This document shows, in pieces, positions 15,164 to 48,559 of a stretch of DNA of 64,000 nucleotides (its first letter is position 1; each line of letters starts with the position of its first letter). Origin of the DNA: an uncultured Candidatus Saccharibacteria bacterium (GTDB lineage: Bacteria; Patescibacteriota; Minisyncoccia; Phycocordibacterales; UBA5272); contig CAZEIK010000002.1 of the NCBI GenBank assembly GCA_964512315.1, positions 45,304-109,303 on the forward strand, in the 5' to 3' direction. A model generated the notes under the pieces. It was not told the DNA's origin. It saw only the letters and a list, made by a program, of their open reading frames with translations, and ran no database searches. The translations under genes and the position numbers were made by a program.

Positions 15164-15169
15164 ATATAA

Positions 15170-16724: not shown

Positions 16725-16946
16725 TATTTTTTGTGTGTAAGTTGTGTATAACTTATCAAAGTTTTACAGAATTTAATTTGTATTGTTTTATTGATGTTAT
16801 TTATTTATATCTTTTCTTTATGTTTTTTGTTTTAAAAACCAAGATAAGTATTGATTTATAAGGTTTTAAAAGTTTTAAACCTAATCAACATATATATCTT
16901 TAATGTGAATTTTGTTTTTACTTATTAAAAGATTATAATTAACTAC
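16725..16946. promoter_or_regulatory. candidate oriC/DNA-unwinding region in the dnaA-dnaN spacer
   Basis: 222-nt strongly AT-rich spacer. Degenerate DnaA boxes TGTGTGTAA (16733-16741), TGTGTATAA (16743-16751) and TTATCAAA (16753-16760) versus consensus TGTGGATAA/TTATCCACA, then AT tracts. Confidence 0.45.
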
Positions 16947-34086: not shown

Positions 34087-34649
34087 TTTATTTACGCGTA
34101 GGCACAGATGCTAACATTAGGAAAAGGGGTGACGAACTCTTTTCTCACACCACACGTGTTTTGCGTAAGGAAGAGATAGAGAGTCTTAGGCAATATCTCT
34201 CAGCTGACATGTTCGGCAACAAAGAGGTGATTAGAATAGAAGATTGGCAAGGAGAAAAAGAAAGAGAGTTTTTATACGAACATTTGGAAGATATAAAAAA
34301 GTCGGAGAATATATTTTTGATAGACGAGATGAGCATGTTGGCGCCAACTTTTAAAAAGCTTTCAGGATTTGCAGATAAGGTTTTTGATGCAAGAGAAGAA
34401 GAGAAAGACGGAGACCCCTTTAAGCTCGTTAACTATATAAATAAAAAAGATAAACGTAACGCCTGGATAGAGTTCACAAAAGTTAAGAATCAAATACCAG
34501 CCGAAGAGTTACAAGGGGCTTTGTTCTGGAAAATGAAAACAATTAGCGACAAGTCGGCGATGTTCGATCTTATAAAAGCTAGATATGAGACACATGAGGG
34601 TGTTGCGGATTTGTATGATGAAATAGAAAAACTTATACTAAGAATATGA
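34083..34649 (+). CDS. hypothetical protein
   Basis: 188-aa charged soluble ORF translationally coupled to polA. No P-loop, so it is not coaE. Confidence 0.4.
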   Translation: MIYLRVGTDANIRKRGDELFSHTTRVLRKEEIESLRQYLSADMFGNKEVIRIEDWQGEKEREFLYEHLEDIKKSENIFLIDEMSMLAPTFKKLSGFADKVFDAREEEKDGDPFKLVNYINKKDKRNAWIEFTKVKNQIPAEELQGALFWKMKTISDKSAMFDLIKARYETHEGVADLYDEIEKLILRI

Positions 34650-34843
34650 AATACCTCTTATACATTTTTGTTGGGTTCTGGGCTCTATGGATATTGTGGT
34701 ATCTAACTGGTGGGCCGTTGCGTGACGATAAGACTAAAATGTTCGTGACACCAACTGAGAACGGTGTTGAATACACTGGATCTGTAAAAGATTTGAATCA
34801 ACAGGGGTTAGACAGTATAAATAATTTTATAAACAAAAACTAA
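34646..34843 (+). CDS. small membrane protein (hypothetical)
   Basis: 65 aa with one TM helix (LLYIFVGFWALWILWYL). Confidence 0.3.
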   Translation: MKYLLYIFVGFWALWILWYLTGGPLRDDKTKMFVTPTENGVEYTGSVKDLNQQGLDSINNFINKN

Positions 34844-34880
34844 AAAGCGGTTTTGATTTTCTTAACGTTTTTGTATTTTT

Positions 34881-34950
34881 AGCAGGATTCGGTCACAAAA
34901 CATATTCCGCTGACACTACATTGTTTCGCGACCCCGTATTCGAATCCTGA
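34881..34950 (-). repeat. conserved tRNA-associated element, copy A (ends in a copy of the tRNA-Lys T-arm)
   Basis: Shares TCGAATACGGGGTCGCGAAA and ATATGTTTTGTGACCGAATCCT (tRNA sense) with the copies at 43448-43521 and 38537-38581. Terminal 11 nt are identical to tRNA-Lys 35008-35018. Confidence 0.6.
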
Positions 34951-35000
34951 CAAAAGACGCCCTGGCGTCTTTCTCTGTGTTCACAATTTTTACAAAATTG

Positions 35001-35073
35001 TGCCCCCAGCAGGATTCGAACCTGCGACCATCTGCTTAAAAGGCAGTTGCTCTACCGACTGAGCTATAGGGGC
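35001..35073 (-). tRNA. tRNA-Lys (anticodon UUU)
   Basis: Cloverleaf GCCCCTATAGCTCAGTCGGTAGAGCAACTGCCTTTTAAGCAGATGGTCGCAGGTTCGAATCCTGCTGGGGGCA. Anticodon loop CTTTTAA. Confidence 0.85.
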
Positions 35074-35357
35074 GATTGCGATATATTATCATGTTTTTCG
35101 GTATTTGTCATTTCTGATTTGACAAACACTTAATAAGGAGTAGAATTTTGTTAGGAGCTGCGGACGAGGAGGAGACCCCGCCACGTTTACGGCTTGTTAC
35201 TCGGCCTCAATTGCGACACTGTTGATTCAAAAAACCTCTCGCAGAGCAGACGCAGAGGAGTCAAAACTAACTATGGATTACGTTGAGCAACACTGCTGAG
35301 AACCCAGCCGACCCGAGAGTCGGCTGGCCACAACCCGGACCATCAGGCCCGGTGTTT

Positions 35358-36271
35358 TTATTTCTGGCAATTGGGGCAGAATACTGTAGTGCGGCCAGAT
35401 ATAATCATTTTTTCTAAAACACTTCTACATCTCACACATTTTTCTCCAGCTCGGCCGTACACTTTGTGTTCACGTGCAAAGTTACCACGACTGCCATCAG
35501 CTAGTAGATAGTCCGATATAGAAGATCCGCCTAGGTCTATTGCTCGCTGAAGTATTGAGATTATATTTTTATAAATAAGAGATATCTCTTGCTTACTCAA
35601 TGTCTTACAATTCCTATCGGGCCTAACCTTAGAAGCAAAACATACTTCATCTGCATATATATTGCCACACCCAACCACAACAGACTGCTCGAGTAGCACC
35701 GTCTTAATGGCTTTGTTTTTTTTAAAATATTTTCTTTAAAGTGGTCTAAAGTAAAGTTTGCGTCAAATGGTTCGAGGCCTATTTTATCGAAATGTTTTTG
35801 GCTTATTGCTTCTTGCTCACTTTTGTAATGCAAGACATAGCCGAATTGTCTGACGTCATTGTAGTATAAGTTGCCACGGTCTAACTCGAATATTATGTGA
35901 GTATGCTTGTGGGGCAGTGGCTGCCTGTACGACTCCTCTATCGGGTGGCCACCAGTCACTATGTCATTTTTGGTTTTGTTATTGGTTTCGTCTACGTAAA
36001 CAAGTTGCCCGGTCATTTTTAAATGAATTAGAACAACATCACCTTCTGTTGTTTTTATTATTAAGTTTTTGGCACGACGAGAAACAGAGTCTATGGTTTT
36101 ACCTTCTAAAAGTTCTTCAAAGTTTGTGGCTTTTATGTTGCTTGCCTTTCTGATTGTTCCAGATCCTGATACTATTTTTTTATTTTTTACAGTGACTTTT
36201 CTGATGATTCTCTTTTTAAGAACTTTGTCTAAACCTTTTCTTAGTGACTCTACTTCAGGTAGTTCCGGCAT
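35358..36271 (-). pseudogene. mutM: formamidopyrimidine-DNA glycosylase (mutM/fpg) interrupted by a frameshift
   Basis: ORF 35597-36271 gives the MPELPEVE... N-terminal half. ORF 35358-35699 in another frame gives the H2TH and zinc-finger half (GNIYADE...CxxC...CPNCQ). The frames switch near a T8/A8 homopolymer at about 35708-35720. Confidence 0.75.
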
Positions 36272-36273
36272 GT

Positions 36274-37506
36274 TTATGCTTGAGTAGACAGATACCTGTC
36301 TAACTCTTCTCTTGCTATACGCGCATCACTCCAAGGCTCCTTTTTGCCGTCAGCTCGCATAATGTATGGGTCGGTGCCTTTGCCTGTTATTAGAATTGTG
36401 TCGCCGGATTCAGCTTTTGATATAGCTAATCTTATAGCCAGCCTTCTATCTTGCTCAATTATTGGAGTATGAACAGTCACACCACTCGCAACATCGTTAA
36501 TAATCTCCATAACATCATCATCATAAGGATCTTCATCTGTTACTATTATTGTGTCGCAGTATTTATCCGCTAATTCACCAAGCTTAGGTCTTTTTGATTT
36601 ATCTCTACCACCACCACAAGACCCAAGTATAGCTATCTTTTTGCCAGGATAGGTCTTGTATAACTTCTCAAGGCTTTCAGGTGTATGAGCATAGTCAACA
36701 ACCACGCGGAAGCTTTGTCCGGCATTAACCTCTTCCACTCGCCCAGGGACCACAGTTAGATGCATTAGCGCTGAAGATATTTTATCTTCAGATATTCCTA
36801 GACTACGCGCAAATGTAGCCGCTGCCAAAGCGTTAACTTTGTTGAACTCCCCAGGCAGTGATATTTTTATGTCAGTAGCATCTTTTTCATAATAAGGTAT
36901 ATTGTGTTCTACGTTGTATATTAAAAAGTGAGGACCATTTTTGTCAGTGACATTTGCTATTATGCGGCGATTCTTTTTGCTTGACCTCGCAACAGATCTG
37001 GCTATGCGTAACTTGGCATCACGGTATTTCTCAAATGACCCATGCGACTCGATGTGCTCAGGTGTTAAGTTGGTGAATATTAGAGTGTTGAGTGAGGTAA
37101 AAGCGTGGCGCCAGAATTTTGACCCCTCGCTTGTAGTCTCTACTATTGCGAATTGGCACCCAGCATCAACGGCCTCGCGCAAGAACTTTTGTACGAAGAA
37201 TCTTCCTGGCATAGTCATCTTGTATAAGTTAGACTTGTTGTGGTCAGCTATTTTGAAACGTATTGTAGAGAGTATTGCAGTCTTGTATCCAGCTTCTTCT
37301 AATATTGCATTCACGAACTCTGTGGTTGTGGACTTGCCTTTGGTCCCAGTTATTGCAACTACATGTATTTTCCTAGCGGGGAAGCGATACATAACAGCTC
37401 CAACAAAAGACAACATAAGGTGATATGTCGGTTGGAAAAATTTATATACTTTTCTAGGTATCAACTTTTCTGTTCTGCGCAAAACTTTTTCTAATACTTT
37501 ATTCAT
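36274..37506 (-). CDS. Mur ligase family protein (MurE-like, short N-terminus)
   Basis: P-loop VVAITGTKGKSTTTEF, DYAHTPESLEKL and C-terminal LITGKGTDPY, which are Mur ligase central and C-terminal domain features. Assignment within the family is uncertain. Confidence 0.65.
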   Translation of the reverse strand: MNKVLEKVLRRTEKLIPRKVYKFFQPTYHLMLSFVGAVMYRFPARKIHVVAITGTKGKSTTTEFVNAILEEAGYKTAILSTIRFKIADHNKSNLYKMTMPGRFFVQKFLREAVDAGCQFAIVETTSEGSKFWRHAFTSLNTLIFTNLTPEHIESHGSFEKYRDAKLRIARSVARSSKKNRRIIANVTDKNGPHFLIYNVEHNIPYYEKDATDIKISLPGEFNKVNALAAATFARSLGISEDKISSALMHLTVVPGRVEEVNAGQSFRVVVDYAHTPESLEKLYKTYPGKKIAILGSCGGGRDKSKRPKLGELADKYCDTIIVTDEDPYDDDVMEIINDVASGVTVHTPIIEQDRRLAIRLAISKAESGDTILITGKGTDPYIMRADGKKEPWSDARIAREELDRYLSTQA

Positions 37507-37515
37507 CTCTCTATT

Positions 37516-38133
37516 CTACTTTGTCTTGGATAAAATTTGAAGAGCCTCTCTAATGATCTCATTCATTGCTCCAGACGGTGATATATTGGTTAATGCTGAG
37601 GTAATATCTTTTTGATTGTAACCCAAGGTCTCAAGGGCAAGTCTCGCGTCACGCATAGCGTCAGTCTCATCTTTTGCGGCTTGATCCAAGTTGAATGAAT
37701 TCTTTAGCTCCAGTATTAACTTTTCTACAGTTTTCCTTCCTACACCAGGAACCTTGGGGAATAGGTCCACATTTGCAGATGCGATGGCTCTTATGATTGT
37801 GCTCGGTGTTGCTACTGACAGTATTCCTAATGCTGATTTAGGTCCCACACCAGAAACACTTATTAATTTTCTAAATAGCTGCCTCTCATTATCGTCAAAG
37901 AATCCGAATAGTGATATCTGGTCTTCGCGTACATGTGTATGAACGTATAATTCAATACTTGCGCCTGGCTGCAGAGCAATTAGGCTCGCTAGTGGAAGGT
38001 TGACTTCGTATCCTATGCCGCCCTGTACTATTAATATCTTGCTTTCGTCTATCAGTTTTACATCGCCAGCGAGGTATCCTATCATCCTTTGATTATAACA
38101 CAAATCTGTGGTATCATTGTCCCCATATGGCAA
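37516..38133 (-). CDS. ruvA: Holliday junction DNA helicase RuvA
   Basis: MIGYLAGDV...IVQGGIGYEVNLP N-terminal OB domain, HhH region (GVGPKSALGILS). 205 aa. Confidence 0.85.
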   Translation of the reverse strand: MPYGDNDTTDLCYNQRMIGYLAGDVKLIDESKILIVQGGIGYEVNLPLASLIALQPGASIELYVHTHVREDQISLFGFFDDNERQLFRKLISVSGVGPKSALGILSVATPSTIIRAIASANVDLFPKVPGVGRKTVEKLILELKNSFNLDQAAKDETDAMRDARLALETLGYNQKDITSALTNISPSGAMNEIIREALQILSKTK

Positions 38134-38390
38134 TTACCAAATCAGCAAAAAAAGCTCTTCGTGTAAGCGATCGTAAGAAGGTTGTAAATGACCGTCTATC
38201 GAAAACTATGAAAGAGGCTGTAAAAACAGTTCGCGCTAAAGTTCAAAAGTCTGATGCTTCTGCAAAAGACAGTCTTTCAAAAGCCTTCAAAGCTCTAGAC
38301 AAAGCAGCAAAGAGGGGAACAATTAAACGCGGAACAGCAGACCGCAAGAAGTCACGTCTTGCTAAAGCTGTAGCTAAGGTTTCTAAGTAA
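38127..38390 (+). CDS. rpsT: 30S ribosomal protein S20
   Basis: MAITKSAKKALRVSDRKK... basic alpha-helical 87-aa protein. Confidence 0.85.
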   Translation: MAITKSAKKALRVSDRKKVVNDRLSKTMKEAVKTVRAKVQKSDASAKDSLSKAFKALDKAAKRGTIKRGTADRKKSRLAKAVAKVSK

Positions 38391-38429
38391 ATTTAAAAGA
38401 ACGTCGACCGACGGGTCGGTGTTCCATAC

Positions 38430-38501
38430 GCTCTCGTAGTTCAATGGATAGAATTCAGGTTTGCGGTACCTGCGATGTAGGTTCGATTCCTACCGAGAGC
38501 A
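38430..38501 (+). tRNA. tRNA-Arg (anticodon read as GCG)
   Basis: GCTCTCGTAGTTCAATGGATAGAATTCAGGTTTGCGGTACCTGCGATGTAGGTTCGATTCCTACCGAGAGCA. Acceptor, D, anticodon (CAGGT/ACCTG) and T stems all pair. Loop TTGCGGT. Confidence 0.7.
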
Positions 38502-38536
38502 CTAAAAATTAAAGAAAATCAAACATGGTTTTCAAT

Positions 38537-38581
38537 TGAGTGAAGTGACTATATTTTGTGACCGATTCCTACCGAGAGCAC
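38537..38581 (+). repeat. conserved tRNA-associated element, truncated copy C (ends in a copy of the tRNA-Arg 3' end)
   Basis: GAGTGAAGTGACTATATTTTGTGACCGATTCCTA is 36/37 identical to copy B. Terminal CGATTCCTACCGAGAGCAC duplicates tRNA 38483-38501. Confidence 0.6.
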
Positions 38582-38606
38582 GTTCTAGTGAGATATACTA
38601 AATATC

Positions 38607-39179
38607 ATGAAAACTTTCTTTATTATCCCAGGCTTTAAACAAAAAGTGAATGATAAAAGTTTTGTGTGGTTAAAAGATTTTCTTACTAAAAAAGGATTTC
38701 GGGTGGTTATGGTTCCTGTTAAATGGAATCGAACTACGTTAACAGATTGTGCAGTTTTATTTGAGGATTTTTTTGATGAGAATAGAGGCGCAGAAAATTA
38801 TGTACTTGGTTTTTCCTATGGTGCTATTATTGCACTCATGACTGCAGAGAAACTTCAACCGAAGAAGCTTTTTCTGTGTTCACTAAGTTCTGATTTTAAA
38901 GAAGACGTTCCCAGTATGAGCGATGCAATAAAAAGATATATCGGCAAAAGAAGGGTGGACGATTGTTTGACTAGAAGCGGTAAAGATATTGCTAAAAAAC
39001 TTTCTATTCCTACGGTTATTTTTTATGGTGATAAGGAAGGAATTGAATATCCTCAACTTAAAAAGAGGTGTGAAGAAACCGCTCGTTTATCAGCAAGGAC
39101 AAAGATTGTAATTGTAAAAAACTCACCACACGATATATCTTTTCCAAGTTATAAAAAGGCTATTTGCGATTATGTTTAG
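38607..39179 (+). CDS. alpha/beta-hydrolase fold protein
   Basis: Nucleophile-elbow-like GFSYGA. 190 aa. Confidence 0.5.
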   Translation: MKTFFIIPGFKQKVNDKSFVWLKDFLTKKGFRVVMVPVKWNRTTLTDCAVLFEDFFDENRGAENYVLGFSYGAIIALMTAEKLQPKKLFLCSLSSDFKEDVPSMSDAIKRYIGKRRVDDCLTRSGKDIAKKLSIPTVIFYGDKEGIEYPQLKKRCEETARLSARTKIVIVKNSPHDISFPSYKKAICDYV

Positions 39180-39208
39180 CGTTTATTATATTTATAAGTG
39201 ATATAAAT

Positions 39209-39961
39209 CTAAAACCACGGGAGCATGGCGTTAGTTTTGGATTTGTATTCTTGCCAGGCTTTGCGGACTTTCTCATCTGGATTTTTATCCCATCTTTTTT
39301 CTAACATCGGAACACCAGAGACAAAACGTAGTAGGTAAGTGATGAGAAGCGGTGAGACTATCATCCACCAGCGAGCAGGTTCGAGCGTTGCAATAAATAT
39401 TCCCCACCACATTGTAGCTTCACCAAAATAATTAGGGTGACGTGTGTATCTCCACAGTCCGCTAGTCATAATGCCACTAACACCACTTCGAATGAATTTA
39501 TCTAATTGATAATCACCCACAGCTTCGAAGATAAATCCAAATATCCAAATAACTAGACCCAAATAGAAGTATTTGGATGTGCCATCAAAAACAACAACAG
39601 GGGACACGATAATTGCTGCGATAGCGGCTTGGAGTATAAAAACTTGTAATAGGCTGCGTAAATAAAAATATAATTTGCCGCTCTTGCTCCAGAGTTCACG
39701 CCAAGCGGCGTATCTAAAGTCCTCAGGTTTGCCGGCATTTTTCTTATATATTCTATATGACAGTCTGATGCCCCAAGTCAAAACCAAGATTGTCACAATT
39801 ACTTTTTGTACAGAAGGGTTATCGTTTAAAAATAGGGAGGTTGTCGCAGCCACCATGAATCCATATGAATAACATATGTCAGCGATCGAGTTATCCTTTT
39901 TAAATATTGAAAAAATGAACACCACAATGGCAACTAAAAATATTAGTATAAATGGGGCCAT
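39209..39961 (-). CDS. DUF1295 / steroid-5-alpha-reductase / ICMT-like membrane methyltransferase-fold protein
   Basis: Polytopic. C-terminal RYTRHPNYFGEATMWWG motif characteristic of the family. Confidence 0.6.
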   Translation of the reverse strand: MAPFILIFLVAIVVFIFSIFKKDNSIADICYSYGFMVAATTSLFLNDNPSVQKVIVTILVLTWGIRLSYRIYKKNAGKPEDFRYAAWRELWSKSGKLYFYLRSLLQVFILQAAIAAIIVSPVVVFDGTSKYFYLGLVIWIFGFIFEAVGDYQLDKFIRSGVSGIMTSGLWRYTRHPNYFGEATMWWGIFIATLEPARWWMIVSPLLITYLLRFVSGVPMLEKRWDKNPDEKVRKAWQEYKSKTNAMLPWF

Positions 39962-39975
39962 GTGTGTAGTATACT

Positions 39976-40440
39976 ATGGAGTATATGGAAGCTTTTAAGA
40001 TTGGTGATGGGGGTGGTGATATGTGGAATAGAAAAAACCAGGGAAGTGACGTGGAAAGTATTGAGGCTTTTTTGAGGGATAGGAGCAAAGGTTCGCGTGA
40101 GGCAGTAATTAAGAATGAGGCGTATGCAGATGTACCAAAAGAGCTCATATCGAATCCAAATATTTCAGAGATTGGCTTGGTTTTCTATGACGAGAGCTCT
40201 ACTTTGAACGATGGCGCAGAGATGTTTAAAAGAAAGGTTAGATTAGAGGTAGGTTTTAAAAACACAGAAGGACATAGAACTTACACTTTTGTTTTGCCTG
40301 AAGATTTGATTAAAATCCCAATCCAAGCAATGACTGAAATTTCCGGAGAAGAAAACCCAGTATTAGGCTATCAAAAATTTTACCCGATTAAAGAGCTTAT
40401 TCTAGAATCAGACAAAAAGATTAACAAAAGTTTGGCCTAG
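39976..40440 (+). CDS. hypothetical protein
   Basis: 154-aa ORF with no recognised motif. Confidence 0.35.
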   Translation: MEYMEAFKIGDGGGDMWNRKNQGSDVESIEAFLRDRSKGSREAVIKNEAYADVPKELISNPNISEIGLVFYDESSTLNDGAEMFKRKVRLEVGFKNTEGHRTYTFVLPEDLIKIPIQAMTEISGEENPVLGYQKFYPIKELILESDKKINKSLA

Positions 40441-40478
40441 AAAAAAACTAATATACGTGCTAGAATACTGTCTTATAA

Positions 40479-40565
40479 GGAAGTGTGGCCGAGTGGTTTA
40501 AGGCACCTGTCTTGAAAACAGACGACCCCTTAAAGGTCCGTGAGTTCGAATCTCACCACTTCCGC
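40479..40565 (+). tRNA. tRNA-Ser (anticodon UGA)
   Basis: GGAAGTGTGGCCGAGTGGTTTAAGGCACCTGTCTTGAAAACAGACG... with a long variable arm and GAGTTCGAATCTC T-arm. Matches the canonical tRNA-Ser(UGA) architecture from memory. Confidence 0.85.
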
Positions 40566-40572
40566 TAAAATC

Positions 40573-41010
40573 ATGAAAATACATGAATTGGGTCATGTTG
40601 TGTTATATGTTTCTAATTTAGAAAAATCTGCGAATTTCTATCGAGATATTTTGGGTTTTAAAGAAATACATAGAGACTCGCACACTGCATTCTACTCAAC
40701 AGGTAGGACTCATCACGAGATGCTTCTGATTGAGGTTGGCGGACAGAAAGATGTAACCAATTATCCAAAGCCTGGACTCTATCATATTGGTTTTAAAATT
40801 GGTAATACCGATGACGAGCTGCGCGAAGCAAAAGATACTCTACTAAAAAATGGAATAGAAATAGTTGGCTCAGCCGATCATCATGTGACACATAGCTTGT
40901 ATATATTAGATCCAGATCAAAATGAGCTAGAGCTGTATATTGATGTAGATGACACCTGGAAGACGGACCATAGCAAAATACTAAATCCAACAAAAAGATT
41001 AGACCTCTAG
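40573..41010 (+). CDS. VOC (glyoxalase/bleomycin-resistance/dioxygenase) family protein
   Basis: MKIHELGHVVLYVSNLEKSANFYRDILGF... and the YHIGFKI second module. The ORF-track start at 40540 lies inside the tRNA-Ser, so the ATG at 40573 is preferred. Confidence 0.7.
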   Translation: MKIHELGHVVLYVSNLEKSANFYRDILGFKEIHRDSHTAFYSTGRTHHEMLLIEVGGQKDVTNYPKPGLYHIGFKIGNTDDELREAKDTLLKNGIEIVGSADHHVTHSLYILDPDQNELELYIDVDDTWKTDHSKILNPTKRLDL

Positions 41011-41044
41011 GACAGGCAAAATGTTCTGTGTTAAAATACTAAGA

Positions 41045-41473
41045 ATGAAATATCTTGGTATAGATTATGGTAGTAAAAAAGTAGGATTTGCAGAAAGTGA
41101 TGACGAAGGCGCGTTAGCATTCCCAATGATGATAGCCGCAAATGATAAGTCATTACTACGCGACACATTAGAAGTTATAAAGGCGTTACATATACACACT
41201 GTTGTAATAGGAGAAAGCTTGGATGGCAAAGGTAAGCCAAACCCAATAGCAAAAGAAGCAAGAGAGTTCGGGGTTAACTTGGAGAATTCTTGTGATGTTA
41301 GGGTTGTTTTTGAAAAAGAATGGTACAGTACAGCAGAAGCTAGAAAGCAGCCAGAAGCCGGAGACAATGTGGATGACGCAGCAGCAGCTATAATCTTGCA
41401 GAGATATTTGGATAAAATTAATCCTAAGAAATATGCAGACGAGGAGGTAGAAGAGGAAGATAATGAAGATTAA
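41045..41473 (+). CDS. ruvX: Holliday junction resolvase-like protein RuvX/YqgF (pre-16S rRNA nuclease)
   Basis: MKYLGIDYGSKKVGFAESD N-terminus. Acidic C-terminal tail. Confidence 0.8.
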   Translation: MKYLGIDYGSKKVGFAESDDEGALAFPMMIAANDKSLLRDTLEVIKALHIHTVVIGESLDGKGKPNPIAKEAREFGVNLENSCDVRVVFEKEWYSTAEARKQPEAGDNVDDAAAAIILQRYLDKINPKKYADEEVEEEDNED

Positions 41474-41478
41474 ATATT

Positions 41479-41832
41479 ATGGAAAACGAAATCAAAATAG
41501 AAAATAATCACATTACAATAGATGACTTTGCAAAAGTTGAGATAATGCTAGGCACTATTATAAGCGCAGAAGAGGTGGAGGGTAGTGATAAGTTATATAG
41601 ACTCAAGGTTAATTTTGGGGAAGAAAGGGTGAGAAACGTTTTCTCTGGTATTAAGAAGTATATTACCACAGAAGAGTTGGTTGGTAAGCAGTTCCCATTT
41701 GTTACCAATCTTGAGCCACGCAAAATGATGGGTGATTATAGTGAGGCCATGATACTAGCTGGAAGTGTTGGGGATGACTTGGCATTAATGTCTCCAACTA
41801 AACAATTACCTAACGGAACCAAATTAAGGTAG
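41479..41832 (+). CDS. tRNA-binding domain protein (CsaA/Trbp111-like)
   Basis: DFAKVEIMLGTIISAEEVEGSDKLYRLKVNFGEE...FPFVTNLEPRKMMGDYSEAMILA, an OB-fold tRNA-binding (Myf) domain. Confidence 0.75.
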   Translation: MENEIKIENNHITIDDFAKVEIMLGTIISAEEVEGSDKLYRLKVNFGEERVRNVFSGIKKYITTEELVGKQFPFVTNLEPRKMMGDYSEAMILAGSVGDDLALMSPTKQLPNGTKLR

Positions 41833-41841
41833 ACTAATAAA

Positions 41842-42432
41842 GTGAGACACTTTTTAGAAAAAATATTTTCCCGGGTGGAAAAATTTGCTAATACAAAATA
41901 TAAGCTGCATGCGTTATTTTGGGTTGCTTTTACTGAGTCGTCTTTTTTCATAGTTCCGCCTGATGTGTTGGTGGCACCGATTGCTTTGTATAAAAAATAC
42001 ACACCCAGATTCCTTGCTATTTTTACTGGTGTAGCCAGCTCGCTCGGAGGCATTTTTGGTTATGGTGTAGGGTACTTTTTCTTTCACACCATTGGAGTTA
42101 AAATAATTAATTTTTATAATGCTTGGGAGGTGTTCGATAAGGTTAAACATCTGTATGAGGGTAGTACGTTCTTTACAGTTCTGGTTGCTGCTTTTACCCC
42201 GATACCATATAAAGTCTTTACAATAGCTGGTGGTATGTTTGGGGTTAATATTATTACTTTTACATTAGCATCCCTCTTGGGTAGAGGCACAAGATTCTAC
42301 CTGGTGGCGAAGCTATCTGAAAAGTATGGCCAAGATGCCCTAGGATTGATTTTAAAAAGGTACGATAAGGTGTTATTAGTAATAGGCGTTATTCTTTTAG
42401 CTGGTTTATACTTCTTATTAAATGAAAATTAA
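41842..42432 (+). CDS. DedA/YqaA-family membrane protein
   Basis: FTESSFFIVPPDVLVAPIAL motif and 4-5 TM helices. Confidence 0.6.
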   Translation: MRHFLEKIFSRVEKFANTKYKLHALFWVAFTESSFFIVPPDVLVAPIALYKKYTPRFLAIFTGVASSLGGIFGYGVGYFFFHTIGVKIINFYNAWEVFDKVKHLYEGSTFFTVLVAAFTPIPYKVFTIAGGMFGVNIITFTLASLLGRGTRFYLVAKLSEKYGQDALGLILKRYDKVLLVIGVILLAGLYFLLNEN

Positions 42433-42679
42433 AATAGAAGATACACAAATAGAAGTTCTAGCAAGAGATGGTTACAAAAATACCTTCAATTATGGCTCAT
42501 TACATATAGATGAGGCAGGCTTCCAAGCGGTAGATAATATTGTAGAAGCCACATCTAAACACATAGCTAGCGATGAGGAAGTGTTTGTTGAGTCAGTTCA
42601 AAATAACGTAGCCGCTAAGATGATAGGCAGGAAAATAGAGGACAAAATAAAACGAGAAGTTAGTTTTATTTATATTTAG
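42422..42679 (+). CDS. hypothetical protein
   Basis: 85-aa ORF. Confidence 0.3.
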   Translation: MKIKIEDTQIEVLARDGYKNTFNYGSLHIDEAGFQAVDNIVEATSKHIASDEEVFVESVQNNVAAKMIGRKIEDKIKREVSFIYI

Positions 42680-43383
42680 TTATCAGATATTTTTCTGTAT
42701 ACAGCAACCGTTGCAAAGCAGAATACGCCAGCAAGTATTACTCCAGGAATGAAAAGCAGAGCAAAACCAATAGTCATGACAATTACAGATATTACATAAA
42801 ACGCTGCTAATTTGAATGCGTGAGGGTGGCATATTTTGTAGCTGTACTTAAGAGAGGCGATTACACCTTTTTGCCTGTCTATCATCGATAGAATTGAAAA
42901 TCCGAATAGGGTGTACACATACAATCCACCAATTATCGCAAAAGCTACCAGTAAGTATGATGTGAGGTCTGGTGCGTAGAAGTTGTCGCTATCAGCTAAA
43001 TGTATAGCAATAGGTAATACAAACACAAAAGACATTGCTCCGGTTATAAGTTGTATAAGTATATATCTCCAACAATCTCTTAATGTGTGTGAAGTTTTTT
43101 CAAAAAGATTTTTGATTGATACAGGGTGATTATCACTCGCGCGCAGTATGCCTTTTATCAAGTTATACCCTAAAAATACACCCACCAAGCTAAGCACAAA
43201 GTTAGCTAGGGCGTATATTGGACCTTGTTCTACTTGGAAGGACCAGTTTTTAATATACATATACATGTCTGCACCAGAAGTCACCAGTGAGATGATTAGC
43301 CCAGAAATTATTACGTATTTCCAGTTATTTTTGAATTTAGACCATCCGACCTTGTATGCATCTAGTATAGAAAATGTATTCAT
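42676..43383 (-). CDS. polytopic integral membrane protein (hypothetical)
   Basis: Six or more hydrophobic helices across 235 aa. Confidence 0.5.
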   Translation of the reverse strand: MNTFSILDAYKVGWSKFKNNWKYVIISGLIISLVTSGADMYMYIKNWSFQVEQGPIYALANFVLSLVGVFLGYNLIKGILRASDNHPVSIKNLFEKTSHTLRDCWRYILIQLITGAMSFVFVLPIAIHLADSDNFYAPDLTSYLLVAFAIIGGLYVYTLFGFSILSMIDRQKGVIASLKYSYKICHPHAFKLAAFYVISVIVMTIGFALLFIPGVILAGVFCFATVAVYRKISDN

Positions 43384-43447
43384 ACAAAAAGTATAGCAGA
43401 TTTTGATGTTTAGTTAGTATTTGTTGCCACAGATACTTTTTAAAATT

Positions 43448-43521
43448 GGTGTCCCTGCTAGGAATCGGTCACAAAATATAGTCGCTTCACTCCTTATTTC
43501 GCGACCCCGTATTCGACTCCT
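43448..43521 (-). repeat. conserved tRNA-associated element, copy B (ends in a copy of the tRNA-Arg(UCU) 3' end)
   Basis: Shares TCGAATACGGGGTCGCGAAA and GAGTGAAGCGACTATATTTTGTGACCGATTCCTA (tRNA sense) with copies A and C. Terminal GATTCCTAGCAGGGACACC matches tRNA 3' end GATTCCTAGCGGGGACA with one mismatch. Confidence 0.6.
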
Positions 43522-43563
43522 AAAAGCAAAACCTAAGTTTTGCTTTTGTGTACACTTTACAAG

Positions 43564-43635
43564 TGTCCCCGCTAGGAATCGAACCTAGATCTAGAGCTTA
43601 GAAGGCTCTCGTTCTATCCATTGAACTACGGGGAC
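43564..43635 (-). tRNA. tRNA-Arg (anticodon UCU)
   Basis: GTCCCCGTAGTTCAATGGATAGAACGAGAGCCTTCTAAGCTCTAGATCTAGGTTCGATTCCTAGCGGGGACA. Anticodon loop CTTCTAA. Confidence 0.8.
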
Positions 43636-43681
43636 AATGGAATAGCATATACTCTAGCATATTTTTGTTATACTTGGAATT

Positions 43682-44164
43682 ATGGAACACATAGATAAAG
43701 TAGACACTCTTTCTGCTGCAGATAAACACAACTCACCGCTTGAGGGGGATTACGGTTTCGATAAAAATAAGACAGCTACAAGTATGTTAATAGAAATGTT
43801 ACCAAAACCATTTGAGGAGATTCTGGAAATCTCTCGTTCGGACGAAAAAGTCTTCAAGGCTTTTAAGGAAATGGTTAAGCAGTCATTTAGATATATGTTA
43901 ACCATTCATGAATTGCAAGAAGAGATAAAAAATTCCCAAGTTGGTAGTGAGGAGTTTCAAAGAAAAGACGCCAGTAGAACCAGGACTCATAACTCAACAA
44001 TTGACTCAATAAATATATGGTCAAGGTCTTTAAGATATGCAGATATAGATAATGGTTTTTTACAAAACGTTGTTCAGAACAGAGTGTCGTACGGTAATTT
44101 TGCTATGGGTATCGCGGCAGCTGTTTACTTAGATAAAAAGCTTTTTAATGAGTTGACACAGTAG
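43682..44164 (+). CDS. hypothetical protein
   Basis: 160-aa ORF. Confidence 0.4.
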   Translation: MEHIDKVDTLSAADKHNSPLEGDYGFDKNKTATSMLIEMLPKPFEEILEISRSDEKVFKAFKEMVKQSFRYMLTIHELQEEIKNSQVGSEEFQRKDASRTRTHNSTIDSINIWSRSLRYADIDNGFLQNVVQNRVSYGNFAMGIAAAVYLDKKLFNELTQ

Positions 44165-44211
44165 TGATTATATTATACAATATATTTCTTACTTTTTCTT
44201 TGGGGTATAAA

Positions 44212-44388
44212 ATGGCCTGTAAAGGTCGAAACAAAGACCGCGCAACCCTAAAACAGTTGACGGCAAAAGAGATACGTTCCGCGTTGGTTTCTGGCGCAAA
44301 GACGGATGTAATTGAAAACGTTTCTGACCGCGACCGCCTGCAGGGCGTGGAGCAAATTTTGAAAGGATACATTAATGAGAAAAAGTAA
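44212..44388 (+). CDS. small basic hypothetical protein
   Basis: MACKGRNKDRATLKQLTAKE..., an internal ATG of ORF 44164-44388. Confidence 0.25.
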   Translation: MACKGRNKDRATLKQLTAKEIRSALVSGAKTDVIENVSDRDRLQGVEQILKGYINEKK

Positions 44389-44421
44389 AAGCCGCACAGT
44401 GTCACTGGCGACTTTTATAAT

Positions 44422-44497
44422 TGGTGGGGGATAAGGGATTTGAACCCCTGACCTTCGCAGTGTAAATGCGCTGCTCTACCAACTGAGCTAATCCCCC
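44422..44497 (-). tRNA. tRNA-Val (anticodon UAC), CCA encoded
   Basis: GGGGGATTAGCTCAGTTGGTAGAGCAGCGCATTTACACTGCGAAGGTCAGGGGTTCAAATCCCTTATCCCCCACCA. Loop TTTACAC. Confidence 0.85.
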
Positions 44498-44525
44498 GAA
44501 TATGTGCTAGTATAATACAGTATTT

Positions 44526-45278
44526 ATGAGTAATAATCAACTAGCTACAGATTTGTATAAAAAGAAAGCTTTTCCATTCGAAGTCCTATATGAAGACGAT
44601 AATATTTTTATTATGAATAAGCCAGCTGGGGTAATGGTTCATGCTGACGGGCGCAGCGACGAGGAGACGTTGGCAGACATTATAAGAAAAAGTATGCCGG
44701 AGTTGGTTGGTGTAGGCGAGGATGATAGGCCGGGTATAGTGCATCGCTTGGACAGGGACACGACAGGTGTGATGGTTATATGTAAGACACAGGAGGCTTT
44801 TAAGAAAATGAAGAATAAGTTTAAAGAGCATCATGTTAAAAAGGTCTATCGTGCAATTGTTGAAGGTAATATTAGAAATGAGACTGGGGTGATAGATACG
44901 CCAATTGCTCGTGCCAAGAGTGACTTTAGAAAAAAGAGCGTAGTGGACCCTTATTCGCAAGATTATAGAGGCGAAGAGAGGGAGGCTGTGACACGTTATA
45001 AAGTTATACAAAGAAGTGAAGATAAAAAGTTTACTTATATAGAAGTATACCCAGAGACGGGCCGCACCCATCAAATACGTGTACACATGCGCAGCATTAG
45101 GCATCCAATAATTGGAGATGATTTGTATGGCTCAAGGCTTGGTAAGGATGAAGCCACAAGGACGATGCTGCACGCAAGAAGTATAGAATTTACCTTGAGA
45201 AATAAAGATATTAAGGTAGAGTCACCTATACCTGCTGACATGGAGCAGTGTCTTGATAAGCTTTTTAAAATGTGTTAG
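44526..45278 (+). CDS. RluA-family pseudouridine synthase
   Basis: Catalytic HRLDRDTTGVMVICK. 250 aa without an S4 domain. Confidence 0.85.
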   Translation: MSNNQLATDLYKKKAFPFEVLYEDDNIFIMNKPAGVMVHADGRSDEETLADIIRKSMPELVGVGEDDRPGIVHRLDRDTTGVMVICKTQEAFKKMKNKFKEHHVKKVYRAIVEGNIRNETGVIDTPIARAKSDFRKKSVVDPYSQDYRGEEREAVTRYKVIQRSEDKKFTYIEVYPETGRTHQIRVHMRSIRHPIIGDDLYGSRLGKDEATRTMLHARSIEFTLRNKDIKVESPIPADMEQCLDKLFKMC

Positions 45279-45281
45279 GAT

Positions 45282-45707
45282 ATGCACACTATGAATACTA
45301 TTCCTGAAACTCTAAAGAGCCGCGCAGAACTTGAATTTGCGAGCGGTGACACAGTTCGTGTTTGGAGTAAACTAAAAGATAATGACGGCAAGATCCGTCT
45401 TCAAGCTTTTGAGGGCCTTGTTCTTGCTCGCAAGCATGGCACTGAAGCTGGAGCCACATTTACAATTCGTAAAGTTGCCTCAGGTGTTGGTGTTGAGCGT
45501 ATATTCCCACTTTACTCTCTTAATATAGACAAGATAGAAGTGGTACGTCATGCTAGAACAAGAAGATCTAAACTTTACTACGTTCGCGAGAAGGCAATCA
45601 AGGACGTTCGTCGCCGCATGAAAGTAGACACAAAAAGAGTAAGTAAGAATGGTGTGACTACAGCAGCCGACGTGGTGGAGGAGACAGCAGAAGCAGTAAC
45701 AGAATAG
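45282..45707 (+). CDS. rplS: 50S ribosomal protein L19
   Basis: RLQAFEGLVLARKHG...FTIRKVASGVGVERIFPLYSLNIDKIEVVRHARTRRSKLYYVRE, the L19 signature. Confidence 0.85.
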   Translation: MHTMNTIPETLKSRAELEFASGDTVRVWSKLKDNDGKIRLQAFEGLVLARKHGTEAGATFTIRKVASGVGVERIFPLYSLNIDKIEVVRHARTRRSKLYYVREKAIKDVRRRMKVDTKRVSKNGVTTAADVVEETAEAVTE

Positions 45708-45711
45708 TACA

Positions 45712-45745
45712 AATACAAAACTCGCCGAAAGGCGAGTTTTGTATT
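45712..45745 (+). terminator. rho-independent terminator after rplS
   Basis: AAAACTCGCC-GAAA-GGCGAGTTTT then TGTATTATAAT (a possible -10 for the downstream tRNA). Confidence 0.5.
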
Positions 45746-45759
45746 ATAATGCGCGACAT

Positions 45760-45841
45760 GCCCAGGTGGCGAAATTGGTAGACGCACTACCTTGAGGTGG
45801 TAGCGAGGCAACTCGTGCTGGTTCAAATCCAGTCTTGGGCA
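45760..45841 (+). tRNA. tRNA-Leu (anticodon GAG)
   Basis: GCCCAGGTGGCGAAATTGGTAGACGCACTACCTTGAGGTGGTAG... with a long variable arm and TTCAAATCC T-loop. Confidence 0.8.
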
Positions 45842-45851
45842 CCCAAAATAT

Positions 45852-46691
45852 TTACAACCCTCTGATTCTTTTTGAGAAGTCTGGGTCGTTCTGATATCTT
45901 TCGGCTAAGTCGTTAATCTTATAGGCTTCGCGTATTTTACCAATTGGTAACTTGGTATCGATGAGACCAAGCTTATAAGCATAATAGTCGGCATCAGCAG
46001 GGAATAGTATAGACCAGTCGAATGGCACTCGACGATAGTAGACTTTGTTAACATGTTCGACTATGTTGGTTGTGCAGCTGTTGGTTATGGTGTTGTAGAA
46101 CTCTGGTACAGCTTGCGTCTCTTGTGCGCGTATTAGCATATCTTCGAACAGCTCATTAGCACGCTCGCGAGTGGTTTTCATCGGATACAAGTATACACTG
46201 TCATGTCTATAATTAGTTCGCAGCTTAAGTAGGTCTTGTTCGTCACCTATTACATACATAAGTTCATATTGTCGCATAAGGCCTAGTATAGGGTTAAAGC
46301 TTTCACCTTTTTCTTTTCTTATTTCAACTGAGATGGGCAAGTATCTGCCATCGTCGAATTCAAAAGATAGGAATGTGTGTGCCGCTCCCAACCCTTTGAA
46401 TGGCTCCACTACGAACCAGACACGCTTAACGGATCCTCTTTCATATGACGCGCTGTAGTAGGCTGGTGTGTAACTTGTAGTTGAAGCATAAGTAAAGTTG
46501 CGTATGTCTTCAATTGTTACCGTTTTGGGTCCGATTTTTATTTTGGGTAGTACAGACTGGTCTGTAGACCAGTTCCTGTCATTGCTTGGCTGTATTAATA
46601 CAGCAGCGAGGACATAGGCAAAGATTAGGAACAATGCAGCAAATAGAACACTTTTTAGAAATATTTTAAAAACTTTTTTTAGTTTTTGCAT
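45852..46691 (-). CDS. membrane-anchored exported protein (DUF4105-like; tentative)
   Basis: The ORF-track start at 46850 overlaps tRNA-His, so the internal ATG at 46691 is preferred (MQKLKKVFKIFLKSVLFAALFLIF signal anchor). Confidence 0.45.
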   Translation of the reverse strand: MQKLKKVFKIFLKSVLFAALFLIFAYVLAAVLIQPSNDRNWSTDQSVLPKIKIGPKTVTIEDIRNFTYASTTSYTPAYYSASYERGSVKRVWFVVEPFKGLGAAHTFLSFEFDDGRYLPISVEIRKEKGESFNPILGLMRQYELMYVIGDEQDLLKLRTNYRHDSVYLYPMKTTRERANELFEDMLIRAQETQAVPEFYNTITNSCTTNIVEHVNKVYYRRVPFDWSILFPADADYYAYKLGLIDTKLPIGKIREAYKINDLAERYQNDPDFSKRIRGL

Positions 46692-46778
46692 TAGTAGAGA
46701 GTGTAACACACTCAACTTAACAATTAAGGGAAAATGTGTTAATATGTTGTTACTAAATTCTTCAAATTTAGAAAAGAT

Positions 46779-46854
46779 GGTGGCTATAGTGTAATGGTTA
46801 GCACGCGGGCTTGTGGAGCCCTCAGTTCGGGTTCGAATCCCGATAGCCACACCA
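46779..46854 (+). tRNA. tRNA-His (anticodon GUG) with extra 5' G(-1) and encoded CCA
   Basis: G-GTGGCTATAGTGTAATGGTTAGCACGCGGGCTTGTGGAGCCCTCAGTTCGGGTTCGAATCCCGATAGCCACACCA. Loop TTGTGGA. Confidence 0.8.
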
Positions 46855-46887
46855 AGATATCAAGAGGTTGGGTGTTATACTTTGTTA

Positions 46888-47328
46888 ATGAACGAAGATA
46901 AGATTTTATTCTACGAAAGTAAATATTACATGTTTTCTAATTTCTCTTCTTTTGCCGTAGAGTGGCGAGGGGTTGTGTGGATGACTTCTGAACACGCTTA
47001 TCAGGCTGCCAAGTTTGAAGATTCTGAGATAATAGAAAAAGTTAAACAAGCCAGGTCTGCATACGACGCTAAGACTATAGCCAGAAGTAACGACGACAAG
47101 AAAATTAAAAATTTTACAGAGATTAAAATTGGAATAATGGAAGATATACTTCGTGCTAAATTAGCGCAGCACAATTGTGTCAGAGATGCTCTAATTGAAA
47201 CAGGAAATAGAGAAATAGTTGAGAACTCACACAGGGATGCATTCTGGGGTCGTGGACCAGATTGGCAAGGCAGGAATGAGCTAGGTAAAGTTTGGATGAA
47301 ATTAAGATCAGAAATACAAAATGGTTAA
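46888..47328 (+). CDS. NADAR/YbiA-family (DUF1768) N-glycosidase-like protein
   Basis: FSNFSSFAVEWRGVVWMTSEHAYQAAKF ... HRDAFWGRG motifs. The start is moved to the ATG at 46888 to avoid tRNA-His. Confidence 0.7.
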   Translation: MNEDKILFYESKYYMFSNFSSFAVEWRGVVWMTSEHAYQAAKFEDSEIIEKVKQARSAYDAKTIARSNDDKKIKNFTEIKIGIMEDILRAKLAQHNCVRDALIETGNREIVENSHRDAFWGRGPDWQGRNELGKVWMKLRSEIQNG

Positions 47329-48559
47329 GATTGAAGACATAGTGGAACATTTGGATAATTGCATTTATCTAGACATTGAAACAACAGGACTGTCTAAATA
47401 TTATGACAAGGTCACAATGATTGGTTATGACAACGGTTATGAATTCAAATATGTAATTGAGCCGAGTGATGTGAAGTCATTACAGAGAGATCTTAATAAT
47501 TCAAAAGTATTAGTTACATTCAACGGAACATTGTTCGATAAGAAATTCCTGGAGCATCACTTTCCAGAATTAAAATTCCCAGAACATCATATTGATTTGC
47601 GCTATCTACTGCGTAGAGCAGGGCATACGGGAGGGCAGAAAAGTATAGAGGTGCAATTAGGACTTAAACGAGCTGACGAGTTAATTGGAGTAACAGGATA
47701 TGAAGCTGTTGTTTTGTATCATGAATATAGACGTGGCAATAGAGAGGCTCTTGAGAAATTAATTGCATATAATCATGCAGATGTGCAGGGTATGAAGCAT
47801 ATGCTTAGTTATGCGCTTAAGAAGCTGCACGATATAGAATTGAATCACAATAAAACCGATATAAGCGAGAGTGTAAAAACCAAAACTAAAAAGTATAATG
47901 GCCCACTTATTACGGCGGAGGAATTATGGTCATTAACTAAGAGCAAGAAACCAGTAGTTGGTATTGATATAACAGGCAGTGAAGAGAGGCCGAGTGGATT
48001 CGCTATAATTTATAAGGATGGAGAAGTTGTAACTAAGAGAATATTTACAGACAAGCAAATAATCGCTGAATGTGTTGCCTCGGGTGCAAAATTAATCTCA
48101 ATTGATTCACCGCTAGGCATACCAAAAGGTAGAACTAGAGTTACTGATGATGATCCGAAACGTTGGGAGATAGGTATTATGCGCTGGAGCGAGAGAGAGC
48201 TTAAGAGGCGTGGCGTGAATGTGTACCCATGCCTTATACCAAGTATGCAGAAGTTAACAGCAAGAGGAATTAGATTAGCTAAGAAGTTAAGAGCACTCGG
48301 ATTCACTGTGATTGAAAGTTATCCAGGAGCAGCCCAAGATATAATGCAAATACCTCGTAAGCATGCAGGACTGCCTTATCTAAAAGATGGGCTAAGAGAA
48401 TTTGGAATGAAAGAGGGTGATTGGTATAGAGAAAAAGTCTCACATGATGAATTAGATGCAATCACTTCGGCCATTGTTGGATTATTCTATTTAGCTAAGA
48501 AGTATGAGGGTCTGGGCAATGATGATGAAGAGTATTTAATAATCCCGAGAATTAATTAG
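47321..48559 (+). CDS. two-domain nuclease-fold protein: N-terminal DnaQ/DEDD-like exonuclease plus C-terminal RNase-H-fold (DUF429-like) domain
   Basis: Exo I-like YLDIETTGL near the N-terminus. C-terminal VGIDITGSEERPSGFAII...IDSPLG...DAITSAIVG. Confidence 0.5.
   Translation: MVKIEDIVEHLDNCIYLDIETTGLSKYYDKVTMIGYDNGYEFKYVIEPSDVKSLQRDLNNSKVLVTFNGTLFDKKFLEHHFPELKFPEHHIDLRYLLRRAGHTGGQKSIEVQLGLKRADELIGVTGYEAVVLYHEYRRGNREALEKLIAYNHADVQGMKHMLSYALKKLHDIELNHNKTDISESVKTKTKKYNGPLITAEELWSLTKSKKPVVGIDITGSEERPSGFAIIYKDGEVVTKRIFTDKQIIAECVASGAKLISIDSPLGIPKGRTRVTDDDPKRWEIGIMRWSERELKRRGVNVYPCLIPSMQKLTARGIRLAKKLRALGFTVIESYPGAAQDIMQIPRKHAGLPYLKDGLREFGMKEGDWYREKVSHDELDAITSAIVGLFYLAKKYEGLGNDDEEYLIIPRIN

Follow-up and report, generated by a model that had tools for sequence, protein, structure and literature searches.

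The window analysed here is a 64-kb stretch of contig CAZEIK010000002.1, from an uncultured Candidatus Saccharibacteria bacterium. It contains genes for DnaA, DnaN, YidC, PolA, RuvA/B/X, a Mur ligase, a penicillin-binding protein and PilB, and is a bacterial chromosome of the Patescibacteria type. Immediately 3' of its tRNA-Arg(UCU) gene we found an element of about 114 nucleotides (nt), located at 43449-43562 and with a body of 95 nt. We call this element copy B, one of three copies (A, B and C) in the window, whose nearest relatives are found in Saccharibacteria genomes assembled from metagenomes. Its parts are listed in tRNA sense.

43563-43635, minus strand: tRNA-Arg(UCU) gene, called by ARAGORN (start 43563/43564) and the Rfam tRNA model (73.7 bits)
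43563-43581, minus strand: S1, the proximal, functional repeat copy, equal to tRNA nt 56-74 (CGAUUCCUAGCGGGGACAC)
43548-43562, minus strand: linker of 15 nt (UUGUAAAGUGUACAC), from comparison with full-length copies of other genomes
43522-43547, minus strand: side hairpin, AAAAGCAAAAC-UUAG-GUUUUGCUUUU, from alignment to model R1 (see below); its loop reads CUAA on the plus strand
43514-43522, minus strand: AS-T (UAGGAGUCG), antisense to tRNA nt 56-64
43468-43513, minus strand: conserved core, with an AAUAC bulge, GGGGUCGCGAAA, an apical hairpin and UUUGUGAC
43449-43467, minus strand: S2, the distal repeat (CGAUUCCUAGCAGGGACAC) of tRNA nt 56-74, 18/19 identical, with G67 changed to A

The tRNA gene ends in ...GGGGAC-A73-C74 and does not encode CCA. 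The repeat covers C56 to the discriminator A73 plus C74, and the core begins 54 nt past the tRNA end. Within the 64 kb, S1 and S2 are the only matches to the 19-nt repeat at up to 3 mismatches, where 0.01 would be expected by chance. The initial annotation had quoted a 74-nt plus-strand string, which is found exactly at 43448-43521 and once in the window. It had also stated that the distal 19 nt equal the tRNA 3' end, including the discriminator, with one mismatch, and this agrees with the 18/19 identity. It placed the duplication at 43450-43468 and 43567-43585; the duplication exists, and these ranges are off by 1 and 4 nt from the real ones (43449-43467 and 43563-43581).

The distal 19 nt are tRNA-derived, as would be expected if the element were a degraded tandem tRNA duplicate (pseudo-tRNA) or a chance similarity. 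Neither ARAGORN nor the Rfam tRNA model (RF00005) called a tRNA or cloverleaf at 43449-43562, and the remainder of the element is a conserved non-tRNA scaffold present in more than 100 genomes. This explanation is refuted by the chance expectation, the family scan and the R1 match, and we give it hardly any credence.

AS-T pairs with the T-arm sequence of the tRNA (UAGGAGUCG against CGAUUCCUA) through 8 Watson-Crick pairs and 1 G-U pair. The linker contains a degenerate GUGU... remnant of a second antisense segment, which in the family is directed to the acceptor 3' strand. The side hairpin is the homologue of the covarying hairpin that sits between the two antisense segments in the family. 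The initial annotation had proposed a hairpin here; it is present at 43522-43547, was not called by a simple terminator scan, and is better described as this side hairpin than as a generic terminator.

In tRNA sense, copy B is predicted to fold with -27.5 kcal/mol (z = -4.3), and copies A and B both fold much better than shuffles, with z-scores of -4.3 and -4.7 between them. The opposite strand of copy B folds no better than shuffles (z = -0.75). Furthermore, the helix GUCGCGAAA/UUUGUGAC contains two invariant G-U pairs; the opposite strand would have C-A mismatches in their place. This strand-specific fold suggests that a single-stranded tRNA-sense form, either RNA or single-stranded DNA (ssDNA), is what gets recognised. 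The predicted fold of a co-transcript of tRNA and element (-67.2 kcal/mol, z = -5.1) pairs the T part of S1 with AS-T, and the tRNA 5' acceptor strand with S2.

We scanned one genome per species with the pattern GGGGTCGCGAAA-N12-40-TTGTGACCGA and found at least 115 loci. The loci were examined as 8-kb stretches around the core matches, in addition to the single 64-kb window. Nearly all of them belong to Patescibacteria (Saccharibacteria, Paceibacterota, Nomurabacteria, Moraniibacteriota, Gracilibacteria and others). Outside this group, the matches listed include a few Elusimicrobia, one 2.3-kb contig binned as Polaromonas and one Omnitrophica match, the last a probable chance hit. Among the matches listed, 76 of 123 copies lie on the same strand as a tRNA or transfer-messenger RNA (tmRNA) gene at most 300 nt upstream of them, usually at 90-120 nt, and more than 20 tRNA species are served by the family. 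After ...GUGAC, most copies repeat their own upstream tRNA, beginning at C56. About three quarters of the intact copies have a repeat that ends with the tRNA (+0 to +3 nt); repeats of much greater length are tandem arrays. Two subtypes were distinguished: subtype 1, which includes copies A and B, has ...UCGAAUAC ahead of GGGG, and subtype 2 has an extra hairpin (CGAAAG-RC-GGAG ... CGAG-YC). No family in Rfam 15 matches the element and our literature searches found no description of it; most likely it represents a family of non-autonomous insertion elements.

The tmRNA genes bearing the element are found in loci L076:6130-6760, L077:6120-6690, L009, L052 and L084; those of L076 and L077 lie downstream of smpB and were missed by ARAGORN. 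In the genomes examined, about three quarters of tRNA genes continue after C74 with A (typically CAA), not CCA. Full CCA is encoded by 22% of tRNA genes without the element versus 10% of those with it. We also observed copies between topA and a relA/spoT-like gene (L049:6300-6560; L067, minus, reversed 6650-6900; L095, minus, reversed 6540-6990). No tRNA was called upstream of these copies, and a direct repeat of about 25 nt that is not tRNA-like (..ACCCUCAUAAACUCGCGAAGUAA) flanks them.

Well-preserved copies share one order of parts. Behind the tRNA comes a long palindrome resembling a terminator, then a segment that is antisense to C74, the discriminator and the acceptor 3' strand, AG, the side hairpin (loop CUGC or CCUGCG), CG, AS-T (antisense to the T-stem 3' strand and half of the T-loop in full copies), the core and S2. 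Element size is about 100-170 nt across the family, and the core helix is GGGGUCGCGAAA...UUGUGAC, whose invariance is partly a product of how the loci were collected. In a structure test on 28 subtype-1 sequences, 94% of cells were paired. The covariation score was 0.356 versus 0.129 for shuffled sequences (0/500 reached 0.356), and at most 0.08 with slid partners. All 8 pairs of the side hairpin covary in this set. When copies at different tRNAs are compared, scaffold identity is 85-92% and the antisense segments differ. AS-T matches of at least 9/10 are about 10 times commoner than with permuted tRNAs, and acceptor-antisense matches of at least 8/10 occur in 28 of 78 family copies versus 5.8 expected.

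R1 is a covariance model of 105 positions, built from 23 subtype-1 copies of other genomes and containing no window sequence. It matched copy B over positions 1-105 of 105, side hairpin included, with 58.5 bits (E = 4e-13), and copy A over its full length with 72.8 bits (E = 9e-17). Copy C gave no match. Across the loci, R1 had 131 matches in 100 loci, and well-preserved copies scored 80-112 bits. Copy B also lies within about 150 nt behind a tRNA on the same strand, carries the repeat from C56 directly after UUGUGAC, and retains AS-T. Of the expected acceptor-antisense segment GUGUCCCCGC, GUGU alone remains. Because of this loss, and because its score is below that of well-preserved copies, we conclude that copy B is a decayed family member. 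The claim of the initial annotation that it is a copy of a tRNA-associated element is therefore upheld by the R1 match, together with two more copies behind tRNA-Lys(UUU) and tRNA-Arg(GCG).

These copies, and two relics of older elements, are located as follows.

34873-34984, minus strand: copy A, full length, behind tRNA-Lys(UUU) (35000-35073)
38514-38581, plus strand: copy C, behind tRNA-Arg(GCG) (38430-38502)
43426-43447, minus strand: relic, the 3' end of an older subtype-2 element (AAUUUUAAAAAGUAUCUGUGGC), aligned with L128 and L084
34831-34872, minus strand: relic, the 5' module (AAAAACGUUAAGAAAAUCAAAACCGCUUUU...) of an older element, distal to copy A

Copies A and B have an exact 20-mer in common, and copies B and C have 34 nt in common at 97% identity. 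In the S2 of copy A (34873-34891) the acceptor part is decayed, and the match to tRNA-Lys(UUU) is in the T part only. At 34873-34881 this S2 reads UAAAAAUAC versus UGGGGGCAC in the tRNA, with five consecutive G-to-A changes and one C-to-U change. The S2 of copy C (38563-38581) is 19/19 identical to tRNA-Arg(GCG). Here a side-hairpin-like segment is fused directly to the 3' half of the core, and copy C is an internal deletion; a 5'-truncated copy was ruled out, as the side hairpin is retained. The remaining four tRNAs of the window have no such distal repeat. Elsewhere in the window, YidC, DnaA and DnaN (14214-18050) lie within its lowest-GC stretch (0.30-0.34), which is probably the chromosomal replication origin region.

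The relics reveal that elements are layered behind the same tRNA. In the window, the last 22 nt or so of the old subtype-2 element and the flank AACAAAUAC come immediately past the S2 of copy B. In a related species, whose neighbouring protein is 46% identical, an identical tRNA-Arg(UCU) is followed by a decayed subtype-2 element without S2 and then by the same flank AACAAAUAC. Because the relic and the shared flank abut S2, copy B (subtype 1) lies between the tRNA and the older element. A 26-nt 5' module (ACGUUAAGAAAAYCAAAACCGCUUUU) is found directly 3' of tRNA-Arg(UCU) in the relative, and in the window just distal to the S2 of copy A, behind tRNA-Lys: the same module stands at different tRNAs. 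At the loci of copies A and B, the younger subtype-1 copy is proximal and the older subtype-2 relic is distal.

We compared contigs encoding an identical neighbouring 160-aa protein and found three alleles. In the first (L116, L119 and L125, i.e. at least three other sampled contigs), copy B is present; relative to the window, its side hairpin has a compensatory base-pair change and an inverted loop, and its AS-T differs. S2 reads GCAGGGACAC in the window and GCGGGGGCAC in these contigs, against GCGGGGACAC in the tRNA. Starting from a perfect ancestor, each has acquired one substitution, and not the same one, indicating drift in sister strains. In the second allele (L117:760-1600, L118:2170-3005), a terminator and an AhpC/redoxin gene lie between tRNA-Arg(UCU) and a 235-aa gene. 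Neither copy B nor the old relic is found there, and the arrangement is therefore a replacement allele, not an empty site. The third (L120:1480-1722) has a tRNA-Arg(UCU) identical up to the anticodon stem, followed by a different T-arm and acceptor 3' strand. This chimeric tRNA has one C-A mismatch with the 5' strand and a Calx-beta gene adjoins it, and it looks like a separate integration with a crossover in the variable region.

Between 43522-43547 of the window and L116, the side-hairpin loop is reverse-complemented (UUAG to CUAA) and one stem pair changes from C-G to U-A, which fits template switching within the palindrome. The element differs at about 8 positions between close strains, and its flanks are nearly identical.

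The initial annotation took the high identity of the repeat as a sign of a recent event or of ongoing homogenisation with the tRNA. Copy B is indeed younger than the relic shared with the related species, but it is also present in the other contigs of the first allele, and the event is recent in a relative sense only. Homogenisation is contradicted by the independent drift of S2 in those contigs, and it is not supported by the family, in which the distal repeat is often badly decayed beside an intact tRNA. Thus, copy B is decaying, not homogenised.

Other loci display further forms of turnover. Tandem arrays were found in L018, L027, L035, L036, L085, L089 and L095, and in L107 a complete unit of 1 kb has a 160-aa P-loop open reading frame (ORF) between perfect repeats. 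At L036:1190-1800, one tRNA-Ser is followed first by three units of about 178 nt whose core differs (...GGGGUACUGAAACUGUAAGUU) and whose last part is in every case the tRNA 3' end, and after these by a single unit with the present core, so there are related families that have other cores. At L047:540-790, the 5' part of a tRNA-Gln (about nt 1-55, to the T-stem) is fused to a degenerate element with a truncated S2, and an intact tRNA-Gln lies 20 nt beyond. Short relics (...UGUGAC plus a decayed tRNA 3' end) occur distal to full copies in L056:2360-2400, L065:6340-6420, L068:3270-3320, L115:4000-4050 and L037, as if older units had been eroded from the 5' side.

To which repeat copy the antisense segment corresponds was examined in 32 copies with a degenerate S2 (at most 13/19 identity). 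AS-T matched the tRNA's own S1 at 8.75/10 on average, with 20 of the 32 copies reaching at least 9, versus 7.0/10 for S2 and 6.7 for the permuted control. Since AS-T tracks S1 and not the degenerate S2, S2 is dispensable after the event and the antisense segment remains matched to the functional tRNA. As for which repeat copy comes from the element, the body and the proximal repeat may arrive together, leaving S2 as the displaced original end. Alternatively, the antisense segment may be held matched by selection or palindrome correction. Mismatches in the T-stem antisense segment comprise 15 G-U versus 6 A-C, and those in the acceptor antisense segment 2 G-U versus 16 A-C. Decay of the acceptor-antisense segment is mainly G to A across the family.

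An antisense segment complementary to the functional tRNA rather than to S2 is also what would be expected of a host-beneficial RNA, co-transcribed with the tRNA and either cis-acting or processed out, like RtT at the E. coli tyrT/tyrV locus. Antisense pairing would then control termination, 3' processing, folding or turnover of the tRNA, with the core serving to bind a protein and S2 offering an alternative partner for pairing. The strand-specific folding, the invariant G-U pairs, the covarying helices and the predicted co-transcript fold all agree with such a role. Several loci hold 2-5 copies, each behind a different tRNA, as a host function would allow. Annotations of E. coli genomes list RtT itself as a small RNA, and according to one paper rtT RNA has a part in processing of the tyrT transcript (10.1101/2024.07.17.603846). 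However, only about 12 of 129 tRNAs that lie in the same loci and outside the ascertainment carry the core. Moreover, close strains lack the element or have something else in its place, a single tRNA can be followed by layers of different subtypes, decay, internal deletion or truncation affects many copies, and at least one unit carries an ORF. We regard a host RNA as a doubtful explanation for the family.

Taken together, we favour the interpretation that copy B belongs, in a partly decayed state, to a family of small, non-coding, non-autonomous insertion elements targeting the 3' ends of Patescibacteria tRNA and tmRNA genes, with a rough probability of 0.55. Copy B itself is probably no longer active. 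Insertion, by what would be a dedicated mechanism, would leave the tRNA gene intact with the proximal S1 copy of nt 56-74. The element body would be set downstream, with its hairpin, the segments antisense to the acceptor and T-stem 3' strands, the side hairpin and the core ending in ...UUGUGAC. A second copy of nt 56-74 (S2) would abut the core, and would afterwards be dispensable and decay. The single-stranded tRNA-sense form, as RNA or ssDNA, would be recognised by unlinked trans-acting machinery; in this form, the antisense segments would pair with tRNA-derived sequence beside the invariant core.

Several observations weigh against an insertion element. No clean pair of empty and filled sites was found, so no insertion event was directly observed; of the searches via flanking proteins, one protein was not on record, one had a single place, and the third yielded replacement alleles only. 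We found no integrase, transposase or reverse transcriptase in the 8-kb loci or among the scanned ORFs of the window (about 30, all housekeeping). No protein family occurs in more than 9 of the 115 loci listed, and the ten most widely shared ones, compared to Pfam, are all housekeeping (FtsH, L19, ClpB, RluD, SmpB, RecG and similar). The core pattern did not occur in any of 2.9 million viral contigs, and searches of phage and plasmid collections gave no match to copy B, so a free form of the element is not known. Of 54 S2 copies that could be aligned, 8 have small indels immediately following CGA, which speaks against a recombinase that is precise and conservative. Some genomes have a copy at each of several neighbouring tRNAs, an arrangement that a host function would also fit. 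Finally, insertion as outlined does not explain what makes the antisense segments fit every new tRNA.

The guide-like antisense design is the most interesting lead on the mechanism. Tentatively, the element may be a programmable, guide-bearing mobile RNA or ssDNA, in which a scaffold of side hairpin and invariant core bears the two antisense segments, and these direct an unlinked enzyme, of the host or of the element, to the T-loop of the tRNA gene. It is conceivable, at the same low level of confidence, that this is retargetable nucleic-acid-guided insertion by an element without its own protein gene, and that E. coli RtT is a distant fossil of the same principle.

The repeat also raises an explanation based on tyrosine integrases. 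Tyrosine integrases that use the T-loop sublocation are reported to leave, as their known signature, a direct repeat that extends from the T-loop as far as the tRNA end (Williams 2002, Nucleic Acids Research). Copy B could be the scar of such an island, with S1 and S2 as attL and attR and the body as the remnant after gene deletion. In line with this, the repeat of copy B has the reported signature, the tRNA is intact, elements accumulate at a tRNA hotspot, and the chimeric 3' half in L120 looks like another integration in the same tRNA. Genes of defence type (NgoFVII, Z1, Mrr, helicase-nuclease, HerA) precede the copies that have no tRNA close by, whose left ends lie outside the view. In contrast, there is no integrase inside copy B or near more than 100 copies. 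The same architecture of about 100-170 nt recurs in 76 copies (among the matches listed), unlike random deletion remnants. The distal junction lacks an inverted core site, with neither the T-stem 5' strand nor the full T-loop: ...UUGUGAC directly abuts C56. Furthermore, one conserved core serves the many tRNA species, and there are indels at the junction. We therefore find an integrase scar unlikely.

Site-specific retroelements such as R2 and SINE-type elements insert in host RNA genes. By analogy, a SINE-like element could have inserted by target-primed reverse transcription at a nicked tRNA gene, to which its RNA would anneal by a tRNA-derived tail, making S1 and S2 a 19-bp target-site duplication. 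The likenesses are insertion in a specific host RNA gene, likely co-transcription, and structure on the RNA-sense strand adjoining the junction at the 3' end. The 3' ends are constant, several copies keep only the last 10 nt or so of the core plus S2, and the junctional indels and the lack of a linked recombinase are compatible too. The differences are that our element has no reverse transcriptase, neither inside nor found nearby, and no poly(A), and that it resides in a bacterial host with the host gene intact. Copy C is an internal deletion and not a 5' truncation, and the antisense match to the local tRNA is left unaccounted for. The CCA after the S2 of copy B might suggest a retro-copy of a mature tRNA end. 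This was ruled out: it is fortuitous, formed by C plus the AAUUUU that belongs to the older element's relic, and S2 copies continue with CA about as often as tRNA genes encode CCA. According to a recent survey (PMC13011429), Patescibacteria have no group II introns, and this makes a retro-mechanism less likely from the outset. Overall, we judge a SINE-like origin to be quite improbable.

If copy B and its relatives are insertion elements, the reduced genomes of Patescibacteria carry hundreds of tiny structured elements that insert behind tRNA genes without damage. These elements would have no linked enzyme, with antisense segments matching each target, and a possibly guide-directed insertion mechanism would become testable. 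Annotators could flag them as a common source of tRNA-flank polymorphism in candidate-phyla genomes. For the window, three intergenic features are explained at once, with copy B as a decaying relic and not an active gene.

Comparison with other known systems gave further likenesses and differences. Integron attC sites, CTX-phi attP(+) and REPIN/RAYT hairpins are recombination sites that work as folded single strands. By analogy alone, the element is like them a small imperfect palindrome in which the single-stranded fold and not the duplex carries the conserved features, and it has no recombinase gene of its own; empty units, cargo-bearing units and arrays also occur in both. Unlike attC, dif or REP, to which it has no sequence relation, it has a stem that copies the target gene and varies from copy to copy. 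Hairpins at both ends and the fixed T55/C56 junction would be compatible with ssDNA transposons of the IS200/IS605 type.

Self-cleaving ribozymes and group I/II introns in Rfam had no match in the window scan at E up to 5, and the cores of hammerhead, HDV-like, twister and hairpin ribozymes did not fit by eye. A string resembling the 5' region of E. coli tmRNA (GGAUUCGA..GCGAAAC) arises because the segment is antisense to the T-arm; a relation to tmRNA was ruled out, as the Patescibacteria tmRNAs in the loci lack the string. A TnpB omega-RNA with S2 as guide was likewise ruled out, since the intact upstream tRNA would be targeted by its own element. Treating the element as an intron of a second tRNA was rejected as well: in silico splicing only returns the upstream tRNA joined to S2.

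The nearest parallel in layout is RtT (Rfam RF00391; gene rttR). RF00391 had no match in 33000-48000 of the window (E up to 5) or in eight Patescibacteria loci (E up to 10), with a gathering threshold of 45 bits and an E. coli control at 133-137 bits. A hidden Markov model of 75 Patescibacteria elements found nothing in the E. coli RtT locus. The core sequences differ, apart from short strings in common (GAUGAGAAG; CGAGCG..GCGAG). The RtT repeat starts at A58 and includes CCA, and in the K-12 tyrT-tyrV locus it stands behind tRNA-Tyr genes only, in contrast to the range of tRNA species served in Patescibacteria. We therefore class the element as working like RtT in its layout and not as a member of RF00391; homology cannot be demonstrated.

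The two share their layout. RtT units lie just 3' of a tRNA gene, in the same orientation, and the final 19 nt of tRNA-Tyr make up the end of each unit of about 178 nt. The closing stem of the Rfam structure is formed between this repeat and an antisense segment further upstream (GGGGAAGGAU). Raised 'mobilome' coverage has been reported for the E. coli tyrT region (10.1101/2024.07.17.603846). RtT arrays have a period of about 178 nt, as does the L036 array of the related element with a different core. RtT copy number also varies, with 1-9 places per genome in 4726 of 5426 genomes, and its function is unexplained, as is that of the Patescibacteria element. Copy B has the same arrangement of a unit that ends in the last 19 nt or so of its tRNA, paired with an upstream antisense segment, as a matter of layout only. 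If our interpretation is correct, the E. coli tyrT/RtT puzzle of 1978 gains a comparative context of many independent copies.

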